Shown here: piece after piece, positions 1,364 to 41,256 of the stretch
Layout of the letters: the number at the start of each line of letters is the position of its first letter
Position numbering within the stretch: position 1 is the first letter of the stretch
Assembly: GCA_965285935.1 (NCBI GenBank)
Contig: OZ260666.1
Span: 38,192,001 to 38,256,000 of the forward strand
Direction: 5' to 3'
Source of the DNA: Ophelia neglecta
Lineage: Eukaryota
DNA: 64,000 nt
Position numbers and translations under genes: made by a program
The notes under the pieces: model-generated
Told to the model about the DNA's origin: nothing
The model's input: only the letters and a program-made list of their open reading frames with translations
Databases searched by the model: none

Positions 1364-3645
1364 ATGGATAATACATTTCTATTGATTGTATACGTGAACT
1401 TTGTTTCTTACTGTAAATCTCAGCAGGGTAAGTAATAGCACGATTTACATAGGTACTTTAGGTAAACGCAAAGTTAGATGTTAAGTTACCAATATATTTT
1501 ATATTTTCTCTGTGAATATGATTAAGTTTATAATCTAATGGTCTGTCCGGAACGTAACGTTATTCAGACTGAATTATTTATTACAGATTTTTATTCCGTA
1601 TCTTTTTATACTATTATCTAGCCTTCTTGGCATTTATATATAATGTAAAGGGAGATTGTGTAACTTACGATTCGGGTGAATTTGTTTCGGTATTCTCAAC
1701 GTAGCATTTTCAGCTAATATGGTATTGAGGTCATAATATGGATTATACAATTTCGGCGAAGTTCACTGTAACTACTTTAATTGGAGAGGCGATGAGGGAA
1801 ATGGTGTTCATGACATGTGAGTCAAATTATTGATAGAAAGAACGGGCCGTTGACAGAGTACCTGAGAGGAGGAAATTGGATGGAAACAGCTCCTTATTGA
1901 CTAAATGTATTTTTGTTGTTAATATCGCTATTCTCATATATTTTAATTCTTCAGTGAACTGCTACTATTGCAGTAGTGTGACCAATACCGACCAGTGTTA
2001 TTCATACACCCAAAGCTGTGTAGGAGAGTGCTTGGTATGTTCTATCAACATCAAACCAAATATTATTTTAAAAGAGTCTCAATATTTTTTTTTATAAAAA
2101 TTCATTCAAAGGAAAATTAAGGCTTGTTTGATTAAAATTGGATGAAATTCATACTATTCGTTTATTCTTCGTTACCTCCTAGGATCAGATCAAAACTCAT
2201 CATGCCACGGGGCAGCAGACTTACACTAAAGGATGTGTTTCCTCGTGTTCTCCGGGGGAAAAGAATGACCCGGCACTGGAATATAAACGAAATGATGCCT
2301 GTTGTAAAACCTCTAAATGTAATAAGCCTACTCGTGGAATGACTAAATTGCTAGGTGAGTTACTAAAATATATTAAATACACTTTTGTAGTTATAACTAT
2401 GTATTTGGCATATTTTTCATGTATCGGAATTAAAGCTTACTAAAATAATGCGTGGGCAATTGCAAATGTTGAATAATTGGGTTTTGAAAAGGAATAAAAT
2501 GAAATAAACACGGATATAAAGTTCAATATCAAATTCAAGAATCGGAAACCTGTGTTATTGTCAAATTACGTATAAGACATCATAATGTAACACAACACCT
2601 GGCAGATTAAAATAAACTGCTTAATTCAAAAGCTTGATTACCATTAACAAATCTTTTTTTTAGAATCCTACGTCAAAAATCTCATCAAAAATGGCAGTCT
2701 AGGGCGAATAAGACAGTTGAATTAATTAACGTTTTTTCAGTTTAAAACACCATTAAGCACCCTGTTTTGGTTATTTTATCATTTTTTCTGGGGAAATCCA
2801 ACGTAATTTTTTTTCAGAAATTGCAGTGATTCAAACCGAGCACCTTGTTAAACGTTAGTTAAATTACTTAAACCAACTATTACCGGACAGAAGGACTATT
2901 TTATATACTATAGCGTATAATGTTCCCGTGAGTTCGTCTTACGACCCTTGTTTTTTGTTTACAGACGCCCCCTTGTGGTCGGCTATAGTAATTACGACAG
3001 CCATAGCTCTCATACTGATAGTAATCGTCCTATCCTTGTTGTGTAGTGGCAAGATCATCTGCTCGAGAATGGTAACAAACTTTTGCTATATGATAAGATA
3101 AACATCTCTGATCTGATTTAAAGCACAGCAATAGCGATATGCTTTGGGTAACTTTTACAGTTCTTTTGCTTTTTGCAATAGATTTAAAGATGCTCCACAA
3201 TAGGTAAGATATGCCAGTATAAATGGCATATACATTGCGTTTTGGACAGGGAGTCTCTGTAAATGATTAGCCGTTTACATGCTTGAAGACCTAGTTACGA
3301 CTTTCTATAAATTTTATGTTGCATTCAGTCAACTGTTCAGACACTATTGAGTGCAATTTTAACAGCAGACTGGCAGGTAAAAAATAGTATCAGTAGTATT
3401 TTCCTTCTTGTTAGTGGACAAAAAGACCAACACCATGGAGCAGATCAAGTTTAAATGGAAACACGCGGACGGAGAGCCACGCCATCCAGGTGTCTGATCC
3501 GCCTGATATACCAGTACCAACGGCGCCTGTCTACACCATACATGACTCGAACCCTCCCCCGAGCTACGAAGACACAGTTGGCAACAATGATAATCACAAT
3601 TGGAATATCAACCAAAGCATACACCATCCAAGTTATGAAGGATAA
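1364..3645 (+). CDS. Ly6/uPAR (three-finger) single-pass membrane protein with PPxY tail, paralog 1
   Basis: Exons 1364-1427, 1955-2034, 2183-2354, 2965-3071, 3415-3645, all GT-AG, phases 1/0/1/0. Protein: MDNTFLLIVYVNFVSYCKSQQ-VNCYYCSSVTNTDQCYSYTQSCVGECL-DQIK...KGCVSSC...ACCKTSKCN (10 Cys, CCxxxxCN end), TM LWSAIVITTAIALILIVIVLSLLC, tail containing PPPSY. Confidence 0.85.
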
Positions 3646-4487
3646 GAGGAGTCCTGTTTCCATGGAATCACGATAGCGAGTTGCGCAGAACAGTGATATT
3701 ATCTTTGCTAATTACTTTTATATCAATAGTTTTGCAAAATGAAAAATCTATATGTATAAGCTACAGTGGCAGAGTGGGGGAAAACTATTGACATGCTTGC
3801 ACCGATGGGGGGGGGGGGGTGGATCTTCAATTATACTTCCTAATAATAATCAAATCAATATATTTGAGATATTTGCGAAAATGCTATTATTAATCATAAG
3901 CTAGTTATTTTTAGAAGAGTAACGTTACTTTGTTACACATGGCCATGTGCCAATACCAAGCTAGCCGACATGTTATATTTTGTTGTTAATAAACTACGTA
4001 TATACTAGAGTAACAAAACTTTCGCAGTACCATGACTCAACCCAGACATTAATTTAAAATTCAGTCCTTAAAGAACTATTACGAAACAAAAATAAAAAAT
4101 GCGTTCAGAAGCCCATCTTAGATTTTATTCATTTATTTGGAAAGACCAATCGTGTATCTGTTTTGTACCGATTAATACTCAATCAGATAAGCCTGGACAA
4201 CATTCAGGTAGTTTTGACCCAAACAATATAGAATAGTGCCGACAAAACCGGTGTTCATCCAATCTCATTGGTCTTGGGTACTGGCAACCTTCTTCGAGGT
4301 TAGGCATTCAGCACGGTCTAAACACAACGTTTCAACCACGCTTTCCTTTCATCCAAAACATTGCCTTTTTGTCTGCCACAAGCTGTGGCTGGTATATTAA
4401 ATAAATGTGATTTTTTCCTACTGTAGTGTGTACATGTACATGTGTACTTGTCTGGGCTAATATAGAAAAAAAAAATCAAAAACGGAT

Positions 4488-4491
<4 letters not shown>

Positions 4492-4546
<55 letters not shown>
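4492..4546. repeat. (CT)n microsatellite
   Basis: Perfect CT dinucleotide run. Confidence 0.95.
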
Positions 4547-4549
<3 letters not shown>

Positions 4550-6325
4550 GAAGTAAACCGTCAACTTTGTGGGTGGTACCGTAATAGTTTTGCAAGGTTA
4601 ATAGATTTATTTAGCTTACAAGTGCTGTCTGTTTTTCGAGGCAGGTAGCATAATTTGTGTTTTCAGTCACTTAGTACAAGTTTTTCATCTTGACATGAAG
4701 TGACCTCATAGTTAAACGTTTAAATTTAACGGTTCAAAGTGCGATCATGATATTCCTATGTATGAGTGTTATATTTTCCACGTCAACACAGAACGTCCTA
4801 CCTCAGCCGCAGCTGCAAACTTTTTGTCATTAAGAAAAGAGTATTTTTTCTCTTACAGCATTAGTCATGGATTGACACTATTCTACGCTCCGATGAGTTT
4901 GAAGGGGCTGCACACTATTTTAATGGGCCAACAACATACAGTGGGTAAGTCTAGCGGTTTTAACGCACCATCAGGCAGTTCTGAGTCATATGTTACGCAT
5001 GTACTGTTTCACATAATTATAATGCGTCTAATATATGTATCTATCCAATAAAAATTTTCAAAACCCAATCATTTCTTTGTTTTCTTTATAAGCCTTGACT
5101 ATACTCTTTCTATGCATAGCCTAATCATACGTAATGTTTGAGTAATTGCTAAACATTTCATTAAAAGGCTGAGTGTCCCGCTTTTTGCACTCGACAGGGA
5201 ATTTTAATTTTTAAAAGTTTACAGTGCCAACAAATGGCCAAGACCAATAAAGAAAAGCGATACATTTTGCTTTTAAACCATATGGTCTCGACATTGGGAG
5301 CAGTTTATTTACATTGTCTGAATTGTCTTAAGAGTAATTGTCAAAATTATCAATTCTGTAATCTGTGAACAATCAAATAACATCATTCAGTAGTAAATTG
5401 TAAGAAAAATAACTATTCTGATATCATTAGATTCCGTTAAAGCATACAACTAAAACAGAGTTTACCGACAAATGGCAATAAATAATAATAAGGATAATGG
5501 TGTTAACATGACTGTACTATTTTGAAAATCCTGAGTCATAATGATTATGTATGTCCAAACCCTTTGCTGCGTTAAACGATTTGATGTTATGTCTGCGTTT
5601 AAACCTTTGACTCAGAAATAAATGCGCATGTGAAACTTCTTGTATAATGATGCACTGATTAATACGCAATCTTTCCGTTATTTATGGAAAATGCAGCTTT
5701 AATTTTTTGGTATAATTTTACGTTTCAATAGTGCTTTCAGGCGATATTTAAAACGACAATTTACTCACCCCACACTATGAACAAAATTAGAAGTTGTTTC
5801 TAACGTGACTTTTAGGATAAAAACATTTGGATGTTAAAAATGCCGCTTAGATTTTTAGGAAGCATACTTTAGAAAAAAAACTTGACTAAAGCGGAGAAAT
5901 GCGCTTTATTTATTCGGTTGAGGTCTGAAAGTCAAAAGCATGTTCTCTGCTCCTAAGCATAAGGCAAATATCGCACCTTAAGTATTGCTCGATACCACAA
6001 CGATGCATCTCGTTTTGAATCACTTCAAATTGCCATGAGCTATTGGTTAATAGACAACTGTCTACATATAACGGTCTACATCATTAACCCCGGTACTTTT
6101 AAACTATTATAGGCGCACGCAGTTCTTTCTCGTCACCTGTCGAGGGTGACGTGCTATCCTTATCGGCTGGATTCGCGATATAAGTGCTTTTCCAATATTA
6201 TTAAAATATTACACAGTAAGAAACAAATACTCTCATCTGTGCACAGGGACAAACTGTGGAACAGATATGGTATTGTGTAAGAATAAACATATATTATATT
6301 CAATATTATAGTTGGAGAGGATAAA

Positions 6326-9230
6326 ATGGAACGATGTCGTGTTATTTTCGCTTTGTCGTTTTTCATGTGCATGTTTCCGTCTTTCGAAAACAAAGGTAAG
6401 TGCGTTGGCAGAGTAAAATAACCAATACTAATTTTGCTTGTGGCTTGAACACTTATAATTGTCTTCTGCAGTGTTCAAATATGAGTTTCAGGCACTCCCT
6501 AATATGTCCACACACATGCCTGAGATCTTTCCGTACCTTAGTTATGATACCAAGGCCCCTGGAAGTTGAAGTTACTTGTTTTTGCCTAATATTACGTTTG
6601 AAGATGGTCAAATATAAACCATAACCCCGCCTAGGTTACCGGCGCTCTGCCGCCATTCCCTCCGGAGATAACGGTGTGAACTACAGAAGAAATGAGTCAA
6701 AATGTTGTTACTACATACAAATCATGTGCCCGTTCAGATTCAATACTAAAATTCCGACTTAATTTCAGCCTCATATTCTATCATTAAAGGTACTTTTCGT
6801 TTTGTCTTTTTTATTATGATTTGAACTCGGTTAAATGTTACAATAATTGCAAATGAATTTTTTGGACAAATTTACATAAATCATGTAAATTTTCTTGATT
6901 AACGATTTTGCTCATTTTCAATTTTTCGTCTTTAAATGTATTATTCCAGTGTTCATTTGGCGCGTTGTTTATCTCTATATGGCTATTTCACAGTGCTCCA
7001 TAAGCCACTGTGGGCGTTCCATTTGCCATGACTTTTGACTCCATAAAAATGAATATATAGAACAAAGTACATTAGATCCCTGGTCTATTCAGCTTTCTCA
7101 ATCTTGTTTTAATCCGCTCAAATTTATCAGGAGACACCAGTTATACGCCCTCTTAGACAGGTAAGGAGTGTCGAAATGTGAGCCTTTTCCGAAAAAAATG
7201 GCTTGAAAAATATGTAAAAGCATTGTTACAAAATTTAAAGATGTTTAAACTTGTGTGCAAAATCGCTATTATACATAGCCTGTTACAAATTAAAAAGTAA
7301 CCATTGCAACATTTGTAATCAAATTTCTGCCTTTCAATTTCACTCGTATTAGTCGAAATATGTGTATTTAAAAACATGATGTGCCACTTTTGGGATATTC
7401 AGTTCGGAGTGGTAACACAGGAACACAGAAATTGCACAGAACATTATGGATAAAAAAATTATGCAATTCAAGTTCATAATTCATTATTTCCTTAATTGTA
7501 ACGTTACAAAATAATAACAATTCATTTTGTAACTAGGAATTTATTTTCTCGTTAAGAATTGTTTGACTAATTAAAGTTTACAAATTTCTTTAGTTATTTC
7601 AAGTTGTCTGATGTTAGATCGATCATTATTTCAGTTGCATGTTACTATTGTTATCTTGTGAGTGATCCTAACGTCTGCTACCAGGAACAGCAGACGTGTA
7701 ATGGTCAGTGTACGGTGAGCCCGCTCATTATGTGCAAAAAATGTATTGAAGTTACACGAAAATCTTTCGGTTTTAACTCTTTTCAGTCGGCAAATAAAGC
7801 TAATATTAGTGAGCAAATTGTGAATGTTCTTTTAATTGAGGGTTACAGTGACAAGCCGTTTTATGATGCCTTCAATGAAATATTATAATATTTCAGACTG
7901 AAATAAAGTACTCCTATTATGGATATTCTACCATATACACCAAGGGATGTAGACTACTATGTGATCCTGGCAATCAAACGGCAAACAATTATTTGTTGCA
8001 AACTACTTGCTGCTCGACTAACTACTGCAACAAAGAAGGGATGACTCCTTATGCGGGTAAATTTTCATATTATTATATGGGTTTTTACTTTTATACAATG
8101 GTTTCAAGTCAGGGAGTATCTTATTAAGACCGCCGGTAACATATTAACCTAATTCATATATTGTTTCTCATTGTATGATCATGTGCATATTATTTGCCAT
8201 GTTAAAATGCCATGTTTTAAACCATTGGCACGGTGCAATATCAGACCGGTAGTCTGGAGCAAGCTGATATCATATCACCGCGCATTACAGGAAAAGTAAT
8301 TTGTTTACATGCATTGATTTCTTGACACGAACGTTCTTCTAGAATTAAGAACCTCTGATCATGTGTCAAGTCCCTGTGATAAATAGACCCTTCCAAGTAA
8401 GGTTAGGCTAACCTGGATTCTAATATTTAACTACCCGGGTGCGATTATCGAGTACAATTCACTTCAGATATTTGAATAAAACCAAATAAGAAAATGTAGT
8501 TAATTCTCTCCCTGTTTTACTGATTCCTGCAAAATCCCCGTTGTCCTGGCAGCAGTTCATCCTTCTTTATACTTGTTCTAGCTAACAGCTCGTGGGTGAT
8601 TTTTGGCATATTAGTTGGCATCTTCACGGGGATATGCTTGACTGCAATAATAATATTTTGGATGTGTAACTGTCTTGGGTGTTGCAAACGAAAGGTGAGC
8701 ATATTCTAGTTGGCATGAAGCAGTTGTGCTTCCTGTTTTTGATATTACGTCGATCAAATGTTAAACTGGTTTACCCTGTGGTCCTTTTTAATTAACCTCG
8801 AAAAGGAAGTCAATATTATATTGTAATTATGCGTTCCTTTCAAAGTTAGATATGTAAAGTACATAGATACATAAATGTGGTGTTATTTTAGAATGTTAGA
8901 AGGAGACCAGGGGTAGAAGACATCAACAATATTTCTCACACCAATCCAGCCTACGACTTGAGCGATATACCACAGCCGTTACCACCCCCTTACACGGCCC
9001 AAGACTTAAATCCACCCCCAATATACGAGGAAATAGTGCAAGATTCTGCGATTTCCGCTGCAGACCAATGCACAAGGAACTCGCCAGAACACGCAGAAAC
9101 AATATCATTCCAGAATGAAACCGGTCAGTGCGGCGAAATTCGACCATCTGTTAGCTCTGTGGTGACCGAAATAGTGGCGGGAACGGCTTCCGTTGAAAGT
9201 CCAGAAAATTGTGAGCGCGTTGACAAATAA
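6326..9230 (+). CDS. Ly6/uPAR single-pass membrane protein with NPxY and PPxY tail, paralog 2
   Basis: Exons 6326-6395, 7635-7714, 7897-8056, 8582-8694, 8892-9230, same phases 1/0/1/0. Signal MERCRVIFALSFFMCMF; ACYYCYLVSDPNVCYQEQQTCNGQCT...KGCRLLC...CCSTNYCN; TM WVIFGILVGIFTGICLTAIIIFW followed by CNCLGCCKRK; tail with NPAY, PPPPY, PPPIY. Confidence 0.85.
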
Positions 9231-9914
9231 GCCTACGTCATGCAAAATAAGTCGCCGTAGAAAAACGCTAAGAAGAACCGTTAATAAATACATGTAAGGA
9301 CGAAGAAAGGAGTCAATTCTTCGGGCCTGTACATACTGACCAATGGTGCTTGAATAGTTATAACAGATGATTGAAATCTTTTATGTCTTAATGTTAAATG
9401 ACGTTCTTATTTTATCAGTATGCAAGACTATATCGTTGCTATTTTCTCCTTAAATTATGTTTTCAATTTAGAAAACCTTTTATAAGTTTTTTCATTAAGT
9501 GTTTTTTTTTCAATGTAAGCCGCTTCTGACATAAATAATAACACTAACCGGCAAAGGAAATTGGTTTGCAAAAAAGAAGAATAATAAAATCCTAGCGTAC
9601 AAACAACAAATTGCCTAGTAAGGGTACAAGCAGTGATCGAACTTCATAAGCTATCGACCTTATATGTCCATGCTCCAACACCAGTCACCTATTTATTCTA
9701 CACGGGATTGGTGCAATAGTGTAGAAAAGCAATTGGATACTAGAGATAACAGGGATCGAGTATAAACTGTGCAGATGCCACTGTTTGTTGCTTTTACTAT
9801 GCCATGTAAGTCATAACAATCCTTAAATAATCCATGAATTACTATGTACAGCCGGATGAAAACATCACTTTGGATGCTGAGATAGAAATGGCTTGCATGA
9901 AAGCCCACATTTTA

Positions 9915-10154
9915 GGCATACTGGAAAAGCTGATACGAAATACCAGATACGAGACGCAGATACGAGATACGAGGTGTTTAAAACGTAGCCATATGGACTA
10001 GGTAAGGGTTAGGGTGAAGGGTTAAGTAAGGGTTTAGTTAGGTTGCTAGCTTAACCCTACCCCTAACCCTGTCATAATCCAACTCAATCTTATTTTTTCG
10101 TATCTGTGTATCTCGTATTTTCTTCGTATTTCGTATCAAGTTTTCCAGTATGCC
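9915..10154. mobile_element. MITE with 9-bp TSD (Mutator/MULE-like non-autonomous DNA transposon)
   Basis: TIRs GGCATACTGGAAAA...TTTTCCAGTATGCC with GATACGA subterminal repeats. Identical flanks CACATTTTA at 9906-9914 and 10155-10163. Internal TTAGGG/CCCTAA-like repeats. Confidence 0.85.
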
Positions 10155-12844
10155 CACATTTTATTAGTTTACGCTTGATTTAGATACCAATCATCGAGGA
10201 ATACACAAGATTTTTGCTATTCCTAATACTAAACTAGTATCAAAGGCAAGCAAAACTGAATAAAACGATGTTGACTTTTTTGCAAACAGTTGACACGAAG
10301 AAGTAACAAAACGAACCTTATGGTTGAGACAAAAGTGTTCTTTTTTGATAAATTGGCGTCATAAAAATCCGAAGCTGTCCTATCATAACTGGATAGTAAC
10401 GATTGGACAGCTTACATTAGGTGCATCAATAGGCCACACAACGTAAACTATTCAAGCACAAACAAAATGGAAAAGTCGACAATGTCAAACACACGTGAAA
10501 ATCCAGATATTCATATAATACGGAATTTCATTAAAAATGACTACAGATGAGTTCGGTAATATGAGTCTCATGCCAAAATTGTTTGCCAAATCAGAATCGA
10601 TACACTTTTACAAAAAGTAAAGTATTTGAATGCTTGATACTAAGCATATATATATATATTAGAGGTTTGAATATTCATGAGAAAAAAAAAGGCAGTGGCC
10701 GGGGTATGTAATTGTTTAAAAAGGACCATTTGTCACATTTGTGAAATATTGATACAGTAGCATGTTTTTAAGTGTGATAGTAATAATCGCTGTGAAAATG
10801 ACAAATTAAACAAATGTAACAAATCTGGGATAATGTACACAAAATCATACTAGATGGATATTTCCATGTTTACCATGGACACCGTCATGGCTTTGAATTT
10901 TTGTGTTGGAATATTAGTAGTTTACCGTTAGTAAATAGCACTCTAAATTCATAAATTAGTAAAGCTGGGGATATTTTTACCTTTAAGCCACCCATTGATA
11001 CCGTCTGCAAAAAGGATATCTAATTACGTTATCGTTAACATATAAAAAAAATGCTGCTGAACTCCAGAATTCAATTTCAAATGTATATAGTTCATATCTT
11101 TAATTATATAACACAGACTGCTATCTTTTATAAATATAACCTTAAAGTTTGAACTCTTACTTAACATTTAAATTTGTAAATTAATTAAGTCTCCTCTGAT
11201 GATAAACAGTGTGGAACGCTTTACATAAATCCTATTGTATTGCACAACTAAAAAGAACAACGACTTAAGGTTGCCATTTTGAGCTAATCTGGAGAGATTT
11301 AACGACTCAACGATAAATGCATATGAAAGAGTTCAACGTTATTCAGGAAAGAAATTGTGATAGTTTATCTGTGTATGTCGATTTATCATCATGCCCTGCA
11401 AAGTGTCATTAAGCATCTGAAAAAATATGATTCGGCATCAAAAGCTCAATTTCAAACCAAGGGCAAAAGTGAAGTTTGATATGACAACGACGAAAACGGA
11501 TGAAATGTGCCACCGCAGGTTTCAAATTATGAATGCCTACGCTGAAATGCAGGCGACAATTTTTGGGACAATACCAGAATAAACTATTCTAAATAATTCT
11601 CATTGCAACTGATATTCAATATTTGCTTTTGTTCTTTTTATTGCCTTACAAGTTTAACTGTTTGGGAAGTGAGGATTGATGTATTGATGCTTGTGGGCGG
11701 GTGGATGCTGGTTCCTGATAATTTCGAACAGAATCAATGGACTATTCTGGATTAATCTCCTTAATGTGTCTGCCGTATATCCACTCTCGTCTTTCTTAAT
11801 GCGGACAACTATTGCATATGTCTTCCTGGGTCTGAAGCTGGTGGTCTTGGATGATTTCGGGTCAATTTAATGGACTATTAGTGATTACTGACTTTGCTTT
11901 GTCATGGGCGTATCTTTTTGACTGATGTAGAAAGTTAATTTTACTATATATAGAAAACTGCATTCATTGGGACCCCGAAATCTTACCTCGCAGCCAAAAA
12001 GTTGTTTTGGGAGTTCAATAACTCCGAAAACTAACCTGGGTTTGAATAAATGATACCATCTGTGAAATTGATTAATCCTAGGTTCGTTTATTGAAAGCTT
12101 AGCTAATGCAAAGTTAGCAGTTGCAATCCTTCATAAGATTGTGTCATGGCTTTCTGATCGGCTCTCATGTTCTATCGCCAAATTCACATTACAAATCAAA
12201 TTGGTTTCCATCGCGATATTATGCTTACTACTGGTATATAACTACGGGCAATGTAAATGTCTTCAAATCAGTTATAGTTATATATCTCACGTAGCTTCTA
12301 AGCCAATGGATGATATTTACATGTAACATCATTCACAGTGATACACTTATAGTTGAGCGTATAGGGTTAATATTTTAATGTTTATACATGCGTTGAATCC
12401 CATACATAATAAATCGCATATATGAATGGGAGAATTATTAAACGCTGGTAAAGGGCAATAAGACAGGAAGGACACCATATGGTAATCAGTTTGCCTCTAT
12501 TTAAATGCAGGGTTTACAAGAGTAACTGAAGTGCGCATTTTATCTACCAAAGCACATTAAACTGACAACTTATACAAGGCCCCATTAGCTATGTGAATTG
12601 TCAACAAATAAAACGCAATGAATTGTCGGTATAAGTAATGGTTACAAGTATCAACATGTGACGCTTAGCGTAGAGTTGAGACTTATTTCGTTTTATTGAA
12701 CAGCAGTTTGGAATAAATCCTTGTTAATCACGGGCCGCCATGATAATGATCACTCGTTGTCGTATATATAACTCTAGTTCTAGTTCATTGTTCGCAAAAG
12801 GGCGTGAGTGAATAAAGCAATGTTAATAACGGAGCGCAGTGATA

Positions 12845-15800
12845 ATGATTTACCACTCTTTGTCGTATATGATCCTGGTTCTGGCGCATTCTTCGTTAAC
12901 GGTCATGAGCATACAAAGTAGGTAGAAAGTTTTTATTAGACTATAACCGAGTTTTTAATTGGCAATATATTTTGAAATGAAAAGACTTGAAATATATATA
13001 CCTGTATCATGATGAATAAATAATTGAAATTCCCTCTACATGTACTTCTTATTTTGTCCTACGACGTCTTCTATTAACCACAATGCATTCTCGGCTAAGA
13101 CTATTTTCAAAAAAATGTGTTTCGCCCACGACAACAACCATCATTTATATCACTGTAGAGCATATACTTGAGATTGAATCATACGGCCATTGTCCATGTA
13201 CCAACACTTTTTCTTAGACGAATGCTGCCGCTGTTTAGGAGGAAAACTGATAACAGACGACGAATGTAACAGTTTGGACTCGCTGGCAGTATGCGAAGGC
13301 TTTTGTTTCGTAAGTAAACAAAGTTGAAATTTGAATTCCGTTTGTCTAACGTTTATCATTTATTTCCATTCCCCTCATCGTATGTTGCAGATGCACGTGT
13401 CTAGTCACAATAAAAGCATGCCTGGTTCCCTTATAAGAGTTTATTGACCTGTCGGACAGAACACAACCATCGGTTTCCTATTCAGAGTCCACTACTTTTG
13501 ACATAATTCTTTAGCGTTGTGTTTTAGGAGACAAATAAATTCATCCCTAGGGTCAATTTAATGGTATTTGATGTGCCATTTTATAACTCTTCATATCATT
13601 GTTGGTTTTAATCGGAAAATACATTCTAAAGTATCTTGATTATGAGAGAATTTCTCCATTTACAAATTCTTCTTGCAAGTTTCAAATGTTTCCTACGTTG
13701 ATACCAGACTCGTATGTCTTAACCTCGGACTCACATCGCGGTAAACTGTTGATTTCTTCTCATTTTTGTATTTCCATTACATGATTAGTTACTATTTTTT
13801 AATTTGGGAGTGATGTACATGTGCCTGTGCCTAGTGGTTCCTGAATTTTGGACCGATTAAATAAACTATTCTTGATTAATGAATGTGATTGTCCGTCGTG
13901 TTTCTACTCCCGTGTTTTTCCACAATGACTACCGAGAATGACGAAAGCGATTTTACCCTATTATCAACGTGGTGGCCAAACACACCATTCAATGCAAAGA
14001 AATTGCATTTCCATCCCGATATGTAGTATCTAACTGAGTTCGCATCTCAGTCGTTCAATAAATCGGTGATGTGCAAAGGGAATGATGCATTTATATGAAT
14101 GTGTTGGGTATGGAAATTTACATCAACATGCACGAAACACTAACTATAACATCATCCGTAATGTTAAGGCGTGACTTATCGAACATAAATATCAAATCCT
14201 TGTAGCAGATGATAATGACAAGTTTGCATTATAATCATTCACTTTGCTTTAAGTGCAAAAACAACAGCAAAAGTCAATTAATTATTTATATCTGAAGCTC
14301 GCAGCATTGACGTTGCTTAGAGCCACTGCTTTTATTTTTTAAAAATGGTGGCGAATAACAGAATCCATGTGCAATGCCATCCCTGAATGCTGTACAATGA
14401 GCTACATACAGGGTACGCGGGGAAATATCATTTTTAATTTATGCTTCTTTGCCATCAACAATATTATTCCGATATTACTCGTTATGTCTCTACCTCATGT
14501 GATTTTTCTTTAACTCTAAAGAACTCAAATACCTCATTGTTTGCCCAAAAAATGAGAACCTCCTAACATAACCTACGACAGATAGTGGACATTCCGGGTT
14601 TTGTTGCAAATTTACAATTTCATCCATAGTGATGAGGTGGCATTATTTACCAATTTAAAAAAAACATTCGTGCATCAAAGATTATCTGTATGGCATCGCG
14701 GCTAAGTTATGTCATGCTTTATTTATTAATTTCTTTACAATCTTATATGACCTGATGTAGTTGGGACACTTTATTTGCAGGCCTGCAACTGAATATTCCA
14801 GTTGACAGATTAAAATAACTATTCTAGATTACTGATTCTGGATTGTTTATGAATTGCATGCAGCTACTGCCTTTTTATATACCAGGGATATGATATATTT
14901 CTTCATTAAGTAACGCACGATGAAGAAGTAGACTCGTGTACTACATATTGGCGGTATTCAACACCACTCTGTGCTTGTGGGATCTTTGATACATCCGATT
15001 ATATTCATGAAAACATAATGAAGCGGATTATGCATATTAATACAATATGTCCACTTGTCATTTTCATTGATAATTATTTCAGAAAAATAGATCGATGCAA
15101 ACCCACTCGTAGAATGTGACATCTAGATAATTCCACGTAAACTGATTATATATACTCCTCTGACAGACTGACATTACCACTTGGAACCGTGGTATTGTTA
15201 TCAACAAAGGATGCTCTGCCAGCTGTCGGAATGCGTCAGAAGACAGGGGCTATCTTCAGTTCAACCGGTCCTGTTGTGGAAGTAAGCTCTGCAACAGAAT
15301 GTTGAACAAAGATGGTGAGAAATTATTAAATAAGTAGAAGCTGTCACTTTATTATCTTACTATCCGATCCATTCTATCACATGGTTTATAACACGAAGAG
15401 TGGTGATTCAAGATAATTACCCCCACGCCAATGCATTAATCCTATCAATACTAAAAACCCAAGATCAAAGCGTTCAATAAGCCGGTATTATGCATAGTCG
15501 CTGCCTAGACTGTTATATTGCTTCTGCAGTATCTACATAATTTATCCCTTTGCATATTCAATCACCCACATTGCATAATGGATTGTTTATCCTTTGATTC
15601 TATCGAAAGTCTCGGTTATATCACTACTATGTAAAACGTGTCGATTCAATGGTTTTTTACCAACACGCCTATGCATATGATAATAGCCGTATTCGATTCC
15701 ATCGATCCTATAATAATTCTATCCTTTTGTACGTTTGTTTTAGTTTTGTTGACTGTCAAAATCTAATCTCTCTTCTGGTCATCGTCTGCTGTGTAAATTC

Positions 15801-17437
15801 TGTTTCTATATGAATCCTAATGAGATTCTGCTCATCCTTTCTATTAGATATGTCATAATTGTGTAGCATCGATATAATATTTGTTTTCTTGATTTACCAA
15901 TCAAGTGTTCCTTTTCTGTATCTTAGTATCAGTCTACTGAGTTTGTTCTAGTAGTAGATATTCTGTTAGTTGTCGAGATGATTATTTCTTCACAATGATA
16001 CTGCACGTTGATGTAGATTCTCTAAACCATCATTGCCGGTCATCATTGCTGAACACGGCACCTGAACTGTGTGAATTGCTTCTGATGACACCGGAGGCTG
16101 TTGTTCCATTAATCTGCTAATGCATTGACTGCAGTAATAAATATAACCGGATATAACCGGTGGTATAAGGATTATACGAATTAAGTGTTTGAATTGTATC
16201 TTGGGATGATTTACTTCCAGGTCAAACAAAACATCCGTTCTGGATGTTTCGAGGACTATCTGTTCTCGGAGTTACTCTCTTCATTACAGCTGGCCTGATT
16301 CTGTATTACTGGCTGAGGAAATGGGAGAAACAAGCTACCCTCTCAAGCCGACAGGTATGTATTGATTAGTATTTATCTGCATTTTCATTATTGTCAGTCA
16401 TACCTTACACCTAATATGATCATTTCAACACTTGAAATAATCCTAAAAACTGTTTTCATTTAATATATGATTTAAAAAGGCCTCGAAATCGTCTACTAAC
16501 TTAAAAGTCGTTATGAAGTACAAACTTTTGGTATGTAAACAAGGACATAGGGTCACAGTAAAATAATAGACACTTATGTTATGTTATTAAATGCTCAACA
16601 CGACTATTGATATCAGCACATTTCGGCAACTGCTACTCAGCTGGGCAACTGCAGAAATGCTTTATCTTGTAACACCGTTAACTTAATAGTTACATTTGAA
16701 ATAAAAAAAAATCAAGCTCGAAAGCTAAATTGGTAATTGTTATCATTAGACAGGTTTAAAATCGTGTTCAAGAATTTTGGGTTCGGTATATGTTGTGAAT
16801 TGGTTCCATAATAGGTTACTTTGTAATGTGTCGTGACTATCCCACTTCTGGGTTATATTCTGAAGATAATTGAAAAAAGGTCGAATATTAGCAAACTACC
16901 AATTCAGGACCCAGCTAATAGTATCAATGCAAACAAGAATATCACCAATTCTAAACGACTTAACCAAAAATACACACAGCAATTAAGAAATGCACAACAA
17001 ATTTGGTATTGACGACATATTGGGTATAAAATTGTATTCATTGGGACGGAATATATGTTATTCCTCACAGCCGTGCGAACTTAACAAATTGTGTGATTAT
17101 CTCATGTGTTCAAGGGATGAGATTAGCCATGATCAGCAGTGGTGGGGCCAGGGAAGGATCTGAATATTCAGACAGATTTAATGAACTATTCTGAATTAAT
17201 GAATTCATCTTAAAGTGCTAATTTTCACATTCGGTTCTTTGAATAATAGTACTCGATGCATGATACATCGCCCTATGATATTTGCAGGGGTGTCCTGGTG
17301 TTATAGAAGAACAACAAATGGAAGTACCCACTAAAGAATACGATACTCCGGCATTGGTCATGGAACTTCCACCATATGACGTCACAGACATATATCCACT
17401 GCCTAGTTACAAGGAATCCACACCGGCGTTGTGTTGA
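12845..17437 (+). CDS. Ly6/uPAR single-pass membrane protein with LPxY tail, paralog 3
   Basis: Exons 12845-12917 (signal peptide, least certain), 13218-13309 (ECCRCLGGKLITDDECNSLDSLAVCEGFCF), 15167-15314 (KGCSASC...SCCGSKLCN), 16221-16354 (TM GLSVLGVTLFITAGLILYYWL), 17288-17437 (LPPY, LPSY). Same intron phases as paralogs 1 and 2. Confidence 0.78.
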
Positions 17438-18444: not shown

Positions 18445-21400
18445 TTATAGGCAAGTCGGCGTGATTTCCCGTATTATCACCCATTCTTCTTGTGACCTTG
18501 AAAAAACAATTTGAATACATTTCACCGGAAATTTCACTTTATCTTTCATGTTCTCGCTCACAAATTTCCCATGCGCGAACTCGCCAATGTTCTGGAAGTT
18601 TGTGCACACACATTTATCATTTCCTGTGGAGCTGACCATAACAAATCCGCTCCGTATGTAGTCGTTTTGCTGCTGGCTATGGCCAGATTCGATGTACAAC
18701 TCTTTCAACTTTTTGGGTGTTTTGAACACAACAGTGAAGGTGTCGTTTTCTTTGGGTTTCTTGCCCCAGAAGAAATTGTCAGACGCGTCGTTGTAAGCAT
18801 TCACTGGAATATAATCTTTATAATGTTCGACAGTAGTACATACATCTGCAGGTGGGTTCTTTCCCATGATTGGTTCAATTTGAATACTTGCTGGTTTGCC
18901 ACCACCATAGAATCTATCTTTCACTTTGACTCTTCCTTTTCCTGTGAATGAAGAAATTTCTCCCATATGTTGAAACAATGTAGGCTTCCTCAGAATTTTC
19001 TTATTTTGCGCAAGCAGCTGGTGAAAAAATGTCAACAGCCAATCGACCGGCATTTCTTGGTAAAACATCATTAGAAACCTGGAAAATCGCCCTAGATCAG
19101 ACGACCTGAATAGTTTACCGATGAATCCTAACTCGCTGAAGTCTATCATTACCCACTGTGGGTCGGATCGACTAACACTTTCTATGTGCTTTTTTATCTC
19201 GGAATCAAAGTTTTTGGTGCTCAGTACATCATCCTCAATTTGGACATAATACTTCGAGAGAGTTGACCCATAGTAGAACATGAAAGCGAAATCCACCACT
19301 TGTTTCGCCCGCCATTTTACGCGGTCTGCGTTGTCGTTATAATTCCGTTTCAATCCCTCTAACGGGGGGTAAGCTTCAGACGATACCTGCATTATCTGGA
19401 TCAAGCCTGAGTCTAGATGTGCACCATATTTCGCTTGGATAGTCTCCACAACTTTTCGTCGCCTTTCCTTGTCAGCGTCGGCTGCAAAAACCAGGAGCAG
19501 AGTGTTTTCTTTGTCCCTAGTCTCACTGAGTAGGGAGTCAATAGTGTGGCCGAGGTAAACGGTGCCAGCCACTTTACGGCACACGGTGGGTATGCCTATG
19601 GTCAGAAACCCTGTAAATTGAGAATCGTGTGCAAATTTATGATGGTTGAAAATAAAAGTCAGGTTCGGTTTCATGGATTCATTTAAATGATCGCTCACAC
19701 ATTTCAACAGTCTATTACCTGGATGTGGCTTGGTATTACCGATGATCGTGATTTGGTCAGGTTTCAGAGGTGCATAGCCCCATTGTCGTTCTACGTCACG
19801 GGCATCCTAAAAATACAGGTACACCTAACTTAATAAACCGTACCCGTCGTCATAGTGATTGAGCGGCATGGCCAGGCCGCCTTATACCTTTATATGTTAT
19901 AAGAAGGCTTTAAAGAATAAGTCATTCAACACGTAGTACCGTGTCGCCCAAATACATACATGTGTTCTATATTTAAAAACGATTATAATAATAGATCTAT
20001 AGCGTAGATGAATTTTCCTATAGGCCTATGTACCTAACTGAAACCTTCCATCCTTAAACCTTCACCCTAACCAGAATCTAGTTCATACGGTTATGTTATG
20101 ATGATATCATCTCTCGTATCTGTGTCTCGTATATGTTATTTCTTATCAGGTTTTCCAGTATGCCCGTTAAAATATGAGCATCATACTATTGTTTTGGCTA
20201 TATTTGCCTTTTACGGATTAACGGTGGATTATTCTGCAGAAAACAATGCTATTTATATAGAAGTAAGCCTATATAACTCGCTGTCCGATTGCAATGCTTC
20301 TCTTGAGGCTGCCTGTAGAAGATGGGCCGCTGGAATGTCTTTTTATATCAATGGCGGGTATTTTTTGCCGGGTGTCCGGTTATTAGTTTACTAGCAATCT
20401 ACTTAGGCCTATTCATAAGCCAACAGCTGTGAGGAGGCGGTATATGAGCCCCCCCCCCCTTTACCCCAGCCCACGCGCACCTAACCCCGCTTCCCCCCCC
20501 CCCCACAACCACCACCACTCCCACCCCATTCCCTCCCCCAGTCCACCACCCCCTCTCCCAACCGCAACACACACGTAACAATCATACGCGCGGAACAATG
20601 TCTAACAATCATATCATGAAACGTTCAAACGCGAGACCATCGATCCGGCAACGCACTGACAAAATGATTGAGTAGGCTTTTAGTTAGTAATGCCTGGGAC
20701 ATCTGAAAAGTGGCCAAGGTTTTGCACAATTTGGCCGGGCTTTTAGCGTTTTTGTTCCAAGATTTATTGCCAATGCGTAATACAATGTAACAAAATATTG
20801 CGATGGATACCAGTAATTGGCAAAAAGGGGGTTCGACATTATCGCTGTTATATCGTCAGTTATGATTAGTGCGAGGAATGAGGACTGGAATTCATGGTAT
20901 CGTCGGGAAAAAACCAGTAGGCCTATTCTCACATTTCCCTGCCACTCGTTAATGTATTAGTCAGGTCCCAACAATAAAATATATATTTATTCAAAAGATA
21001 GTTTGATTATGACTTGCATAGACGGCGACAAAGTGATATGCGCAATCATACTCACGCTGGTCAATGAGCTTTACCGGCCGCTCAACATATATCCTAACTC
21101 GCTACGGTATATCCGAGTCTCATTATTTTCATAGGGGCAAAGATTCAATGGTAAATTGAAATTCTCTAGCGTCTATTAACTGTCCATTTTCATAATTATT
21201 TCGATTTATAAACAAATAGGCCTCTCTCTTTGAAGTTTGTTTCAACATTACACTTTTCGCCGGCATATGATCGGTATTAGGTCTAACGTTATTTGCCATC
21301 AGCGACAGGTTGTAAATCATACGTATCTCACCTTGATGTGGGATTGCTTCAGGTCATGTTGAGTTTTCAGCTGGTCTGAATTGTTCGCAGATGTCATCAA

Positions 21401-38489: not shown

Positions 38490-39643
38490 TAGTTTGACGA
38501 CTCCTTCGTCCTTGGCCGTTCAGTTGGTTTGCCGTCTTGTTGGAGAGGGCGGTCTTTGTTCTGATAAGTAATACCATCCTTTTTACCAGACCATCTATTT
38601 TTCAATATACCCTTCTGTGATGGACAGTCAGGGCTTTTATGGCCAACACCTGAACAATTAAAGCACTTAACGTCCCTAGTTTGTCCCTGTTTGTTATCTC
38701 TGCGATGACTGGACGAAGTTTTAGACCTACCACCAGACTCCAAACTAGAGTCTGACGAAAATCGGTCCAACATCTTTTCCATCAAAGTTGACATTTGTTT
38801 CTGTTGATCTACAATGGTTTTCAACAGCGAAGATTCTTTTGGTTCGTTTATCCAATTTGCCTGCACCTTGACAGGTTTGGCGGTTGATTCACCGTCATGA
38901 GTCCACTTGATGGCTTTATCACGAAACTCATAGAATTTAAGAGTAGGTTGTTCCTCGTCCAATCTACGCAGATCTCTTTTCAGGTTTTCATCACAAATCC
39001 CTTCGCTAAACCTTTCTTTCAAGGCAGTATCTATTTCATGCCGAGACATACCAGTTTCTCTCTGTATCTTATTCATGATGCTTATGAGGCGAATGGAATA
39101 AGAATGCAGAGACTCCTCTTTACTTTGCACCTTAGTATAAAATTGATGCTGTAAAGCAGACACAGACTGATGACCTCCAAACACCTCAGTGATGATATCA
39201 AGTACACTGTGGACAGGTGTGCGACTGTTGCTACGAAACTTAACTTCGCGGCGTACATCGCCAGAAAGGTGGTCAACCACAAAGAAATGCTTTTCTTCAT
39301 TAGACATGCTTCTTTGCGAGTCAAGGTAAGAAGACATATCATTTACCCAATCATCAACATCCGGGTCATTAGGTTTCTCTGGTTTACCAGACAACTTGGA
39401 GAAACGTTTTTCTCTAGCAACAACGATGGTAGGGCCCTGGTTGTAGGAGCCACCCTGCTCAAAAGCACCATCCTGAGACCGACCAGAGGCTAAATCCTTA
39501 CGCGCACCATCAACTACCGGCTCAGGTTTTACCTCTGAAAGACTCGCCCTAAGCTTAGTGATCTCCTGCTTTAGACTCAGGAAATTTTCTTCTGTAAATT
39601 CCCCTGATCCTAACTTATTAGGGTTCTCATCATCACCTGACAT
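38489..39643 (-). CDS. gag: Gypsy Gag with CCHC zinc knuckle
   Basis: ATG at 39643 (MSGDDENP); capsid-like region; CFNCSGVGHKSPDC knuckle; pol follows in the -1 frame at the gag stop. Confidence 0.92.
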   Translation of the reverse strand: MSGDDENPNKLGSGEFTEENFLSLKQEITKLRASLSEVKPEPVVDGARKDLASGRSQDGAFEQGGSYNQGPTIVVAREKRFSKLSGKPEKPNDPDVDDWVNDMSSYLDSQRSMSNEEKHFFVVDHLSGDVRREVKFRSNSRTPVHSVLDIITEVFGGHQSVSALQHQFYTKVQSKEESLHSYSIRLISIMNKIQRETGMSRHEIDTALKERFSEGICDENLKRDLRRLDEEQPTLKFYEFRDKAIKWTHDGESTAKPVKVQANWINEPKESSLLKTIVDQQKQMSTLMEKMLDRFSSDSSLESGGRSKTSSSHRRDNKQGQTRDVKCFNCSGVGHKSPDCPSQKGILKNRWSGKKDGITYQNKDRPLQQDGKPTERPRTKESSN

Positions 39644-41256
39644 GGTGTCGGTAGGTCTATTAGCTGTTTCACAAAAAAACAAGGGGGATTAAAGATGTAC
39701 GAACCTAAGGGTTTCACCAAGAAAGAACACCGAGAGGGTTATTCAGTCTACCTATAGTGAAGCTATTTGGGAAACATCAATGGAAGCTTCAACATCTCGT
39801 GGTTACCTACAGCTTATTGCCATCTCATTCATACAGATAGCTTCTACATATATGTAATATCATTAAATATCAAAGTCATTCAACATTCATGTAAGTAATT
39901 TTCAAAATTAAATAGCAAAGTCATTCATAATTATCAATTAAATATCAAACATTCAAAAGCAAAGTTATTCAATTTCATACAAGTACATTCTAAACATTCA
40001 CTTGCAAAACACATTCAATTTTCATCAAAGTAAATATAAACATTCAAGACAATTTCTAGTTGCAAACCAAATTTTTTTTTTTTTTTGATAAATTTAGAGC
40101 AACATAATTATTACACAATATAATTCGCCTTATTATTTACATTCAATATCCATGCACTTCGGAAAGCACACAGTCACAATGATAGGAAACCAATAGACAG
40201 CTGATTACAACTATCAATCTGACAATCGTTTTACGTTTTGCAATAAAATTCAAAATCCATTCAAGCACACAATTATAACTATAATGACTCAACAGGATAA
40301 CAGTTCGAGATACAGTGCATTGTTGCTGGCAACTAATCGAAACAATACAAGTCATTCCAATATATAAACATGCATCCGTACACACAATCATTATCCATGG
40401 TTATAGACACAAGTTCAAAAGTTAGTACACAAAAGCGAAATCAGGACAGCAAAAAGTTCTCAAGTAATCATCAGTAGCAACAAGTAATTAAAACAACAGA
40501 ACCAATTCAGAAATAATTAATAATTCATATGGTACTAATGGTTACCTTCGAATGTCGGTTCACCCACGTGTATTTGTTGTCAATGTTTATGTCTGAGGTC
40601 AATCACGGCGTCGTAAAATGTTTGACACGATGTTAGTGACCATAGGACTTTATGTCAGCTACTATTGACAAGTATCTACCGGGGACAACAATTTTTAGTT
40701 GAGTGGAGTAAGTTGCATTTTAAACTGAAAATTTTGTCGAATACCTGCTGATAAAGTTCCGATAGTAGATTGACGAGTCTTCAATGTACACACAAGTTCG
40801 GAAGTCTGGCCTTCTTCTCGACGATACTCGGCGGTTCCCGTAAGCAGTCTCGACAATTCCGAAGTCGTCGGTCTGCAAGAAGTGACCTCGATCGGCTGGG
40901 AGAGAGGTTCGGCGGCAGTTTTGACCGTAGAGCGAGACAAATGCACGTGCCGAGCCTGGGTTAGTTTAACTGGTCGTGTAGAGCAGTGCAAGTTAATCAC
41001 AGTCACAGTCGAACCATACTGTAAAGCTGGAATTGACTGGCACCTCGACGAACCTAATGTTACTTTAAGTGGGGTCCCATCCTTCTATTGTAGGGCTTCA
41101 ATACTTCTCCGTGGTAGATGAATGAAACGCCTAGCAGGAGCGGCCCTTGACATCCGCCGGACTGAATCTCCAGCGTTCACCATAAGGATCAGAAATTATG
41201 CCATGCCAACGAAAAGCAATGTCCAGAAAATTCACACAACCAAATCGGGCGCCATT

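Follow-up and report, generated by a model that had tools for sequence, protein, structure and literature searches.

A tandem array of Ly6/uPAR genes with predicted transmembrane helices and constrained PY-motif tails in Ophelia neglecta

Proteins of the Ly6/uPAR family, defined by the cysteine pattern of their LU domain (PMC8763315; definitions also in PMC5549309), are held to act via partners and without a cytoplasmic tail (PMC4839075). What, then, might a Ly6 protein do that had acquired such a tail? The question is raised by a stretch of 64,000 nucleotides from Ophelia neglecta (assembly GCA_965285935.1, 762 Mb; contig OZ260666.1, positions 38,192,001 to 38,256,000 of the forward strand), referred to here as the window. 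It carries three genes, g1, g2 and g3, in which an LU ectodomain is predicted to be followed by a transmembrane (TM) helix and a tail with PY motifs (PPxY or LPxY). The parts of these predicted proteins are all known; it is the combination of an LU ectodomain with a constrained PY tail that appears to be new. Coordinates are window positions unless prefixed C2, C5, C8 or C9.

All three are predicted five-exon genes on the forward strand, with GT-AG junctions throughout and intron phases 1, 0, 1 and 0, a shared layout that the first-pass annotation had described correctly. Their translations are free of stops (g1, 1364-3645, 217 amino acids; g2, 6326-9230, 253 amino acids; g3, 12845-17437, 198 amino acids). 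Exon 1 encodes a signal-like start, exons 2 and 3 the ten cysteines, exon 4 a hydrophobic stretch and exon 5 the tail. For exon 4 of g2, two alternative acceptors were rejected because they broke the frame, as were two alternative starts.

The genes had been taken for a tandem trio. The three lie where they were placed, but the array is larger. A DNA search with g1 revealed an additional copy upstream of the window, the 100 kb upstream proved to hold four in all (u1-u4), with the same phases and reaching 55 kb away, and an exon-wise profile scan of 214 kb recovered these seven copies of the array, with no eighth LU copy in that interval. Open five-exon models with identical phases are available for six of the seven, each with a hydrophobic, signal-like N-terminus recognised by eye; u2 falls short only of exon 1, which was not found, and upstream of it lies a Cys-rich stretch without exon context. 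In a genome-wide search with the tail motif of g2, the only matches were six array loci, g3 being too distant. As predicted models, g1-g3 hold up, and most copies of the array are intact. Between u3 and u2 (C9:38175867-38180147) lies a gene piece in which a signal-like exon is followed by one for a TM segment and another for a tail bearing PPPY and PPKY, all in the array phases. No LU exons were found between its signal-like and TM exons; it could be a donor of the layout or a stripped copy.

The ectodomain is recognisable by its cysteines. The ten-Cys pattern, opening with C-x2-C and closing with CC-x4-CN, occurs in all seven copies, and the spacing in g1-g3 (2, 8-10, 6-8, 3, 16-18, 3, 15-17, 0 and 4 residues) bears out the Ly6 assignment, with one extra Cys in g3. 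Exon 3 alone exceeded the cut-off of PF00087 in all three window genes, that of PF00021 in one, and that of PF01064 (Activin_recp) narrowly in one (g2, 21.3 bits, cut-off 20.9). Compared with the PDB, a profile of the array's exon 3 matched PSCA (9u9n) at E 3.5e-10, GPIHBP1 at 4.3e-5 and ACVR1B at 0.13, among 15 matches. Against 1.84 billion representatives it retrieved 32 proteins at E <= 0.001, Ly6/PSCA-like or multi-LU by sequence. A whole-LU profile built from 30 complete domains of 15 of these relatives aligns at positions 2-71 of 71 over exons 2 and 3 in every copy.

Within the genome itself, the array profile gave 2.3-5.0 bits with six TGF-beta-receptor-like or BAMBI-like ectodomains (labels assigned from the Activin_recp search and sequence pattern) and 6.8-28.1 bits with eleven LU pieces from genes of the glycosylphosphatidylinositol (GPI)-anchored type, which scored 9-28 bits save one at 6.8. 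A tree of half domains (39 rows, 48 columns) did not resolve the branching of these short pieces. By profile, the array ectodomain is PSCA/Ly6-like and not TGF-beta-receptor-like. Elsewhere, at C2:30.659-30.669 Mb, six LU second halves follow one another in the same orientation, and the final one has a GPI-type end; they probably form a multi-LU gene, with a short C4-x3-C5 spacing like that of the array.

A typical Ly6 gene has three exons, with the domain split over exons 2 and 3 and the GPI signal in exon 3 (PMC4839075). The array, as modelled, keeps exons 1-3 of this layout, while two exons replace the GPI end. The best 21-residue hydropathy window scores 3.06 in g1, 2.74 in g2 and 1.80 in g3 (2.66-3.06 in six copies); 5, 6 and 4 Lys or Arg residues, respectively, lie within the 20 residues after it (3-7 across the seven copies), and 85, 124 and 62 residues lie beyond it (62-144 across the seven), in keeping with the tails of roughly 60-125 amino acids first estimated for g1-g3. 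A Cys is found at the inner end of the TM segment in six of seven copies. The phase-0 donor and acceptor joining exons 4 and 5 are kept in all seven, and in each of them unspliced read-through after the TM exon would still leave charged Lys/Arg behind the hydrophobic stretch.

Other LU genes of the same genome provide an internal control. A search with PF00087 gave 34 matches, from which 30 loci were fetched, four in the array and 26 outside it. Of the latter, 21 are GPI-type, stopping 25-36 residues past the CN, within the same exon and in a hydrophobic run, although ten of these belong to a single cluster of near-identical copies; three run on into more LU exons and two are unclear. The array is an LU-domain family by Cys pattern and profile that, with its predicted hydrophobic stretch, basic residues and tail in every copy, departs from the GPI-anchored or secreted form characteristic of Ly6/uPAR proteins; a TM anchor, as proposed in the first-pass annotation, is favoured over GPI. 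At C5:107.36-108.71 Mb, a single cluster comprises ten or more GPI-type LU genes that are nearly identical.

The tails had been thought to share little except PPxY or LPxY. These motifs are indeed shared, but the likeness extends to a 12-residue module, Y-x3-D-x2-P-[P/L]-P-x-Y, in which five positions are invariant across all seven tails. The pattern was picked after viewing the alignment; in full, it arose in at most one of 20000 shuffles per tail, against 4-10% of shuffles for a bare L/PPxY. Its two invariant Tyr stand at a fixed distance of 11 residues, accompanied by an invariant Asp, and an acidic residue follows the second motif within two positions in every copy. Identity across a 26-residue PY block ranges from 28 to 85% between copies. 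Canonical PPxY is present once in g1 and twice in both g2 and g3, and a second canonical PY motif occurs in u1, g2 and g3. Other sorting-type motifs are scattered: P[ST]AP in g1 and u1 only, NPxY in three of seven tails (g2, u3 and u4) and YxxI or YxxF in four, with Lys in every tail. The u3 tail has a YxxI-x6-YxxI pair, complete in this copy alone. An atlas search with the tail returned TMEM51, TMEM52 and MLANA clusters at 0.75-0.81, under the level that counts.

Constraint on the tail was estimated from the ratio of non-synonymous to synonymous differences (pN/pS), pooled over two independent pairs, g1/u1 and u3/u4. The ratio is 0.29 (95% 0.13-0.57) for the PY block, a value lowered both by delimiting the block after its conservation had been seen and by aligning codons through the protein. 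It is 0.63 (0.50-0.81) for the rest of the tail, a region not delimited by conservation, 0.55 (0.38-0.79) for the LU domain and 0.63 for the TM exon. By this measure, constraint within the gene is strongest in the PY block. As pN/pS in the tail exon is below 1, exon 5 behaves as coding sequence. The copies had been called rapidly diverging, and identity between them is low (24-62% in the LU domain), but pN/pS is below 1 in every region, with no sign of overall positive selection.

Three public runs, all contigs of one sample, give a view of alleles. Among the changes listed, a stop-making letter at position 2284 in g1 exon 3 affects Tyr82 in two of the three runs, and is probably a heterozygous null allele. 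In g3, for which the list of changes in exons 3-5 is full, there is no indel, exons 3 and 4 are unchanged, and exon 5 has three amino-acid changes, which spare both PY motifs (codon effects read by hand). A second copy of the g1 tail piece in the contigs was considered as gene conversion and rejected, being the u1 paralogue.

What could such tails recruit? The L/PPxY motifs of Comm, PRRG4 and Rcr1 bind WW domains of Nedd4/Rsp5, and proteins of this kind control the surface level of partners; apart from the motifs, these single-pass proteins are very poorly conserved (PMC5578492). Likewise, CYYR1 uses its PPxY to bind WWP1, which it directs to lysosomes (PMC11399591). In the O. neglecta genome there are 46 WW matches, and WW clusters stand beside HECT exons at four places (C8:29.13, C5:47.55, C8:56.65 and C2:98.6 Mb). 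TM anchoring, a constrained PY module and the presence of WW-plus-HECT genes together make coupling to ubiquitin-dependent trafficking the best inference for the array. Going by motif and analogy, its tails probably recruit a Nedd4-family ligase. A complex prediction with the g1 tail and two WW exons of the same genome scored 0.08 against a mark of 0.34, controls not having been folded.

The array may best be read as a lineage-restricted fusion of Ly6 exons with a Comm/PRRG/Shisa-like PY tail. The standard first three Ly6 exons would have been joined at a phase-1 junction to TM and tail exons, replacing the GPI signal, and tandem duplication would have followed. In each copy the outer LU domain would bind a different membrane partner, while all copies would reuse the same inner PY module as sorting signal. 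Binding of the module to WW domains of a Nedd4-family ligase would lead to ubiquitination of the partner and its delivery to the lysosome. P[ST]AP is an ESCRT-I contact motif, and in g1 and u1 it may add such a contact. The chances that the seven members do work in this way, holding a membrane partner outside and delivering it to a ligase inside, seem evenly balanced. A bolder version can be offered only tentatively. Since exons 2-3 are entered and left in phase 1, they form a swappable cassette; prototoxin-like Ly6 binders might have been turned into targeted degraders, the cassette combined with the fixed two-Tyr PY module for paralogue-specific removal of channels or receptors, with the LU-less neighbour as donor or stripped derivative.

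Several points weigh against the adaptor reading. Splicing into exon 5 is predicted from genomic sequence; the public runs, whose contigs cover introns evenly and show no exon joints, serve for alleles only. The whole-LU profile scores hardly higher over exons 2 and 3 (25.7-31.8 bits) than over exon 3 alone (24.4-28.4 bits), and the way in which the PY block was delimited favours a low pN/pS. The first Tyr falls within a canonical L/PPxY in just two of the seven copies, and the gap between motifs is 7 residues, compared with 2 for tight WW-tandem binding in KIBRA/MAGI (PMC6744271). Given the g1 stop allele, at least one array copy may be dispensable. Searches for orthologues in other species found none, the queries being single exons (half-domain or low-complexity), so that these blanks are weak. 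Finally, the analyses do not separate an adaptor for a partner from a receptor that sorts itself.

This last point leads to the alternative in which the proteins are self-internalising capture receptors: a variable LU domain would bind soluble ligands or microbes, the PY, NPxY and YxxI motifs would drive the receptor's own uptake and turnover, and genes would come and go by birth and death. The seven-copy tandem array, the low LU identity, the probable g1 null allele and the scatter of endocytic motifs over Lys-bearing tails are all as expected from it, but the LU domain as a whole is without positive selection, and it is the PY module, not NPxY or YxxI, that every copy has kept; on balance it is a fairly unlikely account. 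Less probable still are signalling receptors, whose Tyr would recruit a WW scaffold of the YAP, MAGI or WWOX type or, once phosphorylated, SH2/PTB proteins. Two invariant Tyr at fixed spacing with an invariant Asp exceed the needs of a lone PPxY, u3 has its YxxI pair, and many of the WW matches do not adjoin HECT exons. The pair is complete in one tail only, however, the 7-residue linker is off the KIBRA/MAGI consensus, and the acidic residues after PPxY resemble the extended Comm/PRRG motif that binds Nedd4 (PMC5578492).

The first-pass annotation had likened the proteins to a kinase-less decoy, and a BAMBI-like TGF-beta/BMP decoy would share their layout of three-finger ectodomain, TM segment and tail; g2 exon 3 also passes the Activin_recp cut-off. 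This idea is very unlikely in view of the match to PSCA rather than ACVR1B and the low scores of the genome's own receptor and BAMBI ectodomains. A genome search with Activin_recp gave 13 matches, none in the array, and the BAMBI family (PF06211) identifies a separate gene at C2:49553383 (69.3 bits) without matching the array. The least probable account is that the copies are decaying, or are plain Ly6 genes with a GPI anchor, and that the 'tail exon' goes unused. It would accommodate the g1 stop allele, the missing exon 1 of u2 and the weak hydrophobic stretch of g3, but is at odds with the splice sites retained in all copies, a tail exon that is open with pN/pS below neutrality in both pairs, and the charged residues that follow the hydrophobic stretch whether or not splicing occurs.

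The adaptor reading places the array between known systems. With Ly6/uPAR proteins, among which PSCA and GPIHBP1 are nearest, it shares ten Cys ending in CC-x4-CN, a signal-like exon 1, a domain split over exons 2-3 and tandem clustering; it differs in having no GPI-type end in exon 3 and two added exons for the TM helix and the tail of 62-144 residues. With Comm, PRRG4, Rcr1 and the Shisa-like/STMC6 proteins (CYYR1, WBP1, VOPP1 and TMEM92) it shares a small ectodomain, a single TM segment, often with a Cys at its inner end, and a tail most conserved around L/PPxY with acidic residues after it (PMC5578492). The single TM and cytoplasmic PY motifs of STMC6 are predicted in all seven copies, while the six-Cys C*C*CC*CC ectodomain (PMC5578492) is replaced by a ten-Cys LU domain. 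Comm and PRRG have a Cys-free or Gla-type ectodomain, and the array tails do not reproduce the complete Comm motif exactly. These are conserved genes, whereas the array is a lineage-restricted tandem family for which no sequence homology to them was shown. By analogy, its most likely mode of action is that of the Comm/PRRG/Shisa-type PY adaptors, a group to which it does not itself belong.

BAMBI has a comparable architecture of three-finger ectodomain, TM and kinase-less tail, but the array ectodomain is nearer to GPI-type LU domains. In starfish, only BAMBI among 48 LU proteins has a long kinase-less tail (Table S1 of PMC11595613). The exon at C2:49553383 has a related three-finger ectodomain exon 36 kb away at C2:49517216, grouped with it at 97/98 in the tree; the latter may belong to another BAMBI or to a receptor.

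In a 2026 survey covering 387 genomes of invertebrates (PMC13719153), LU followed by a C-terminal TM helix counts as a standard arrangement, and further novel fusions are described. Its main text does not mention PY tails, and its supplementary list of thousands of invertebrate LU sequences may include such a layout. Among the papers listed in literature searches, mostly non-subscription ones, none described by title or abstract a combination of LU/Ly6 with TM and PPxY, Nedd4 or WW. The architecture was not recovered in other species: none of the 32 relatives has L/PPxY after its last CN, and word-index homologue searches gave no match for exon 3 among longer proteins (935 candidates) or for the tail among longer (7993 scored) and near-length (699) proteins.

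If the adaptor reading is true, the Ly6 family would gain, by joining an LU domain to a constrained PY tail, a direct route into ubiquitin-based sorting. Its effect would then change from modulating a receptor to clearing it away, and a simple exon-level path from GPI anchor to transmembrane adaptor would be revealed. The reach of the finding is limited, as all parts are known, LU-plus-TM proteins of invertebrates are on record and the family seems confined to one lineage.

Predicted exons of g1-g3 and positions of the upstream array copies
Feature	Position	Strand	Basis
g1 exon 1, signal-peptide-like, phase 1 donor	1364..1427	+	model; hydrophobic N-terminus by eye
g1 exon 2, LU Cys1-Cys5	1955..2034	+	model, Cys pattern
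g1 exon 3, LU Cys6-Cys10-Asn	2183..2354	+	PF00087 21.6 bits, cut-off 21.2
g1 exon 4, TM helix and Cys/basic stop-transfer	2965..3071	+	model, hydropathy
g1 exon 5, cytoplasmic tail; PTAP 3517-3528; Y...Y module 3532-3567 (PPSY)	3415..3645	+	motif analysis
g2 exon 1, signal-peptide-like	6326..6395	+	model
g2 exon 2, first half of LU	7635..7714	+	model, Cys pattern
g2 exon 3, second half of LU	7897..8056	+	PF00087 24.8, PF00021 21.3, PF01064 21.3 bits
g2 exon 4, TM helix, Cys cluster, KRK	8582..8694	+	model, hydropathy
g2 exon 5, tail: NPxY, then module with PPPY (8982), PPIY (9015)	8892..9230	+	motif analysis
g3 exon 1, signal-peptide-like	12845..12917	+	model
g3 exon 2, first half of LU, one extra Cys	13218..13309	+	model, Cys pattern
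g3 exon 3, second half of LU	15167..15314	+	PF00087 29.9, PF00021 25.2 bits, both above cut-off
g3 exon 4, TM helix (weakest among seven), then RKWEK	16221..16354	+	model, hydropathy
g3 exon 5, tail: LPPY (17366), LPSY (17399)	17288..17437	+	motif analysis
u1, array copy	C9:38186129-38189638		
u2, array copy, exon 1 not identified	C9:38183341-38185283		
u3, array copy	C9:38172412-38174376		
u4, array copy	C9:38136966-38138655		

The array has varied neighbours. Between g2 and g3 (9915-10160) lies a short, very high-copy element at which contig depth sums to tens of thousands. On the reverse strand, in tail-to-tail orientation with g3, a 453-codon open reading frame (ORF; 18448-19806) encodes an MGAT4-type glycosyltransferase (PF04666, E 1.5e-68; PF23524). 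Further along the same strand, an ORF with a Pif1 helicase 2B piece (31150-31767) is probably a mobile-element remnant, and an element resembling a long terminal repeat retrotransposon (34350-39688) combines a PNMA/zinc-knuckle gag frame with a 1390-codon reverse transcriptase-RNase H-integrase frame. Between u4 and u3, a reverse-strand ORF of 428 codons (L008:5202-6485) has a weak, sub-cut-off match to amiloride-sensitive sodium channels (PF00858, E 0.0067).

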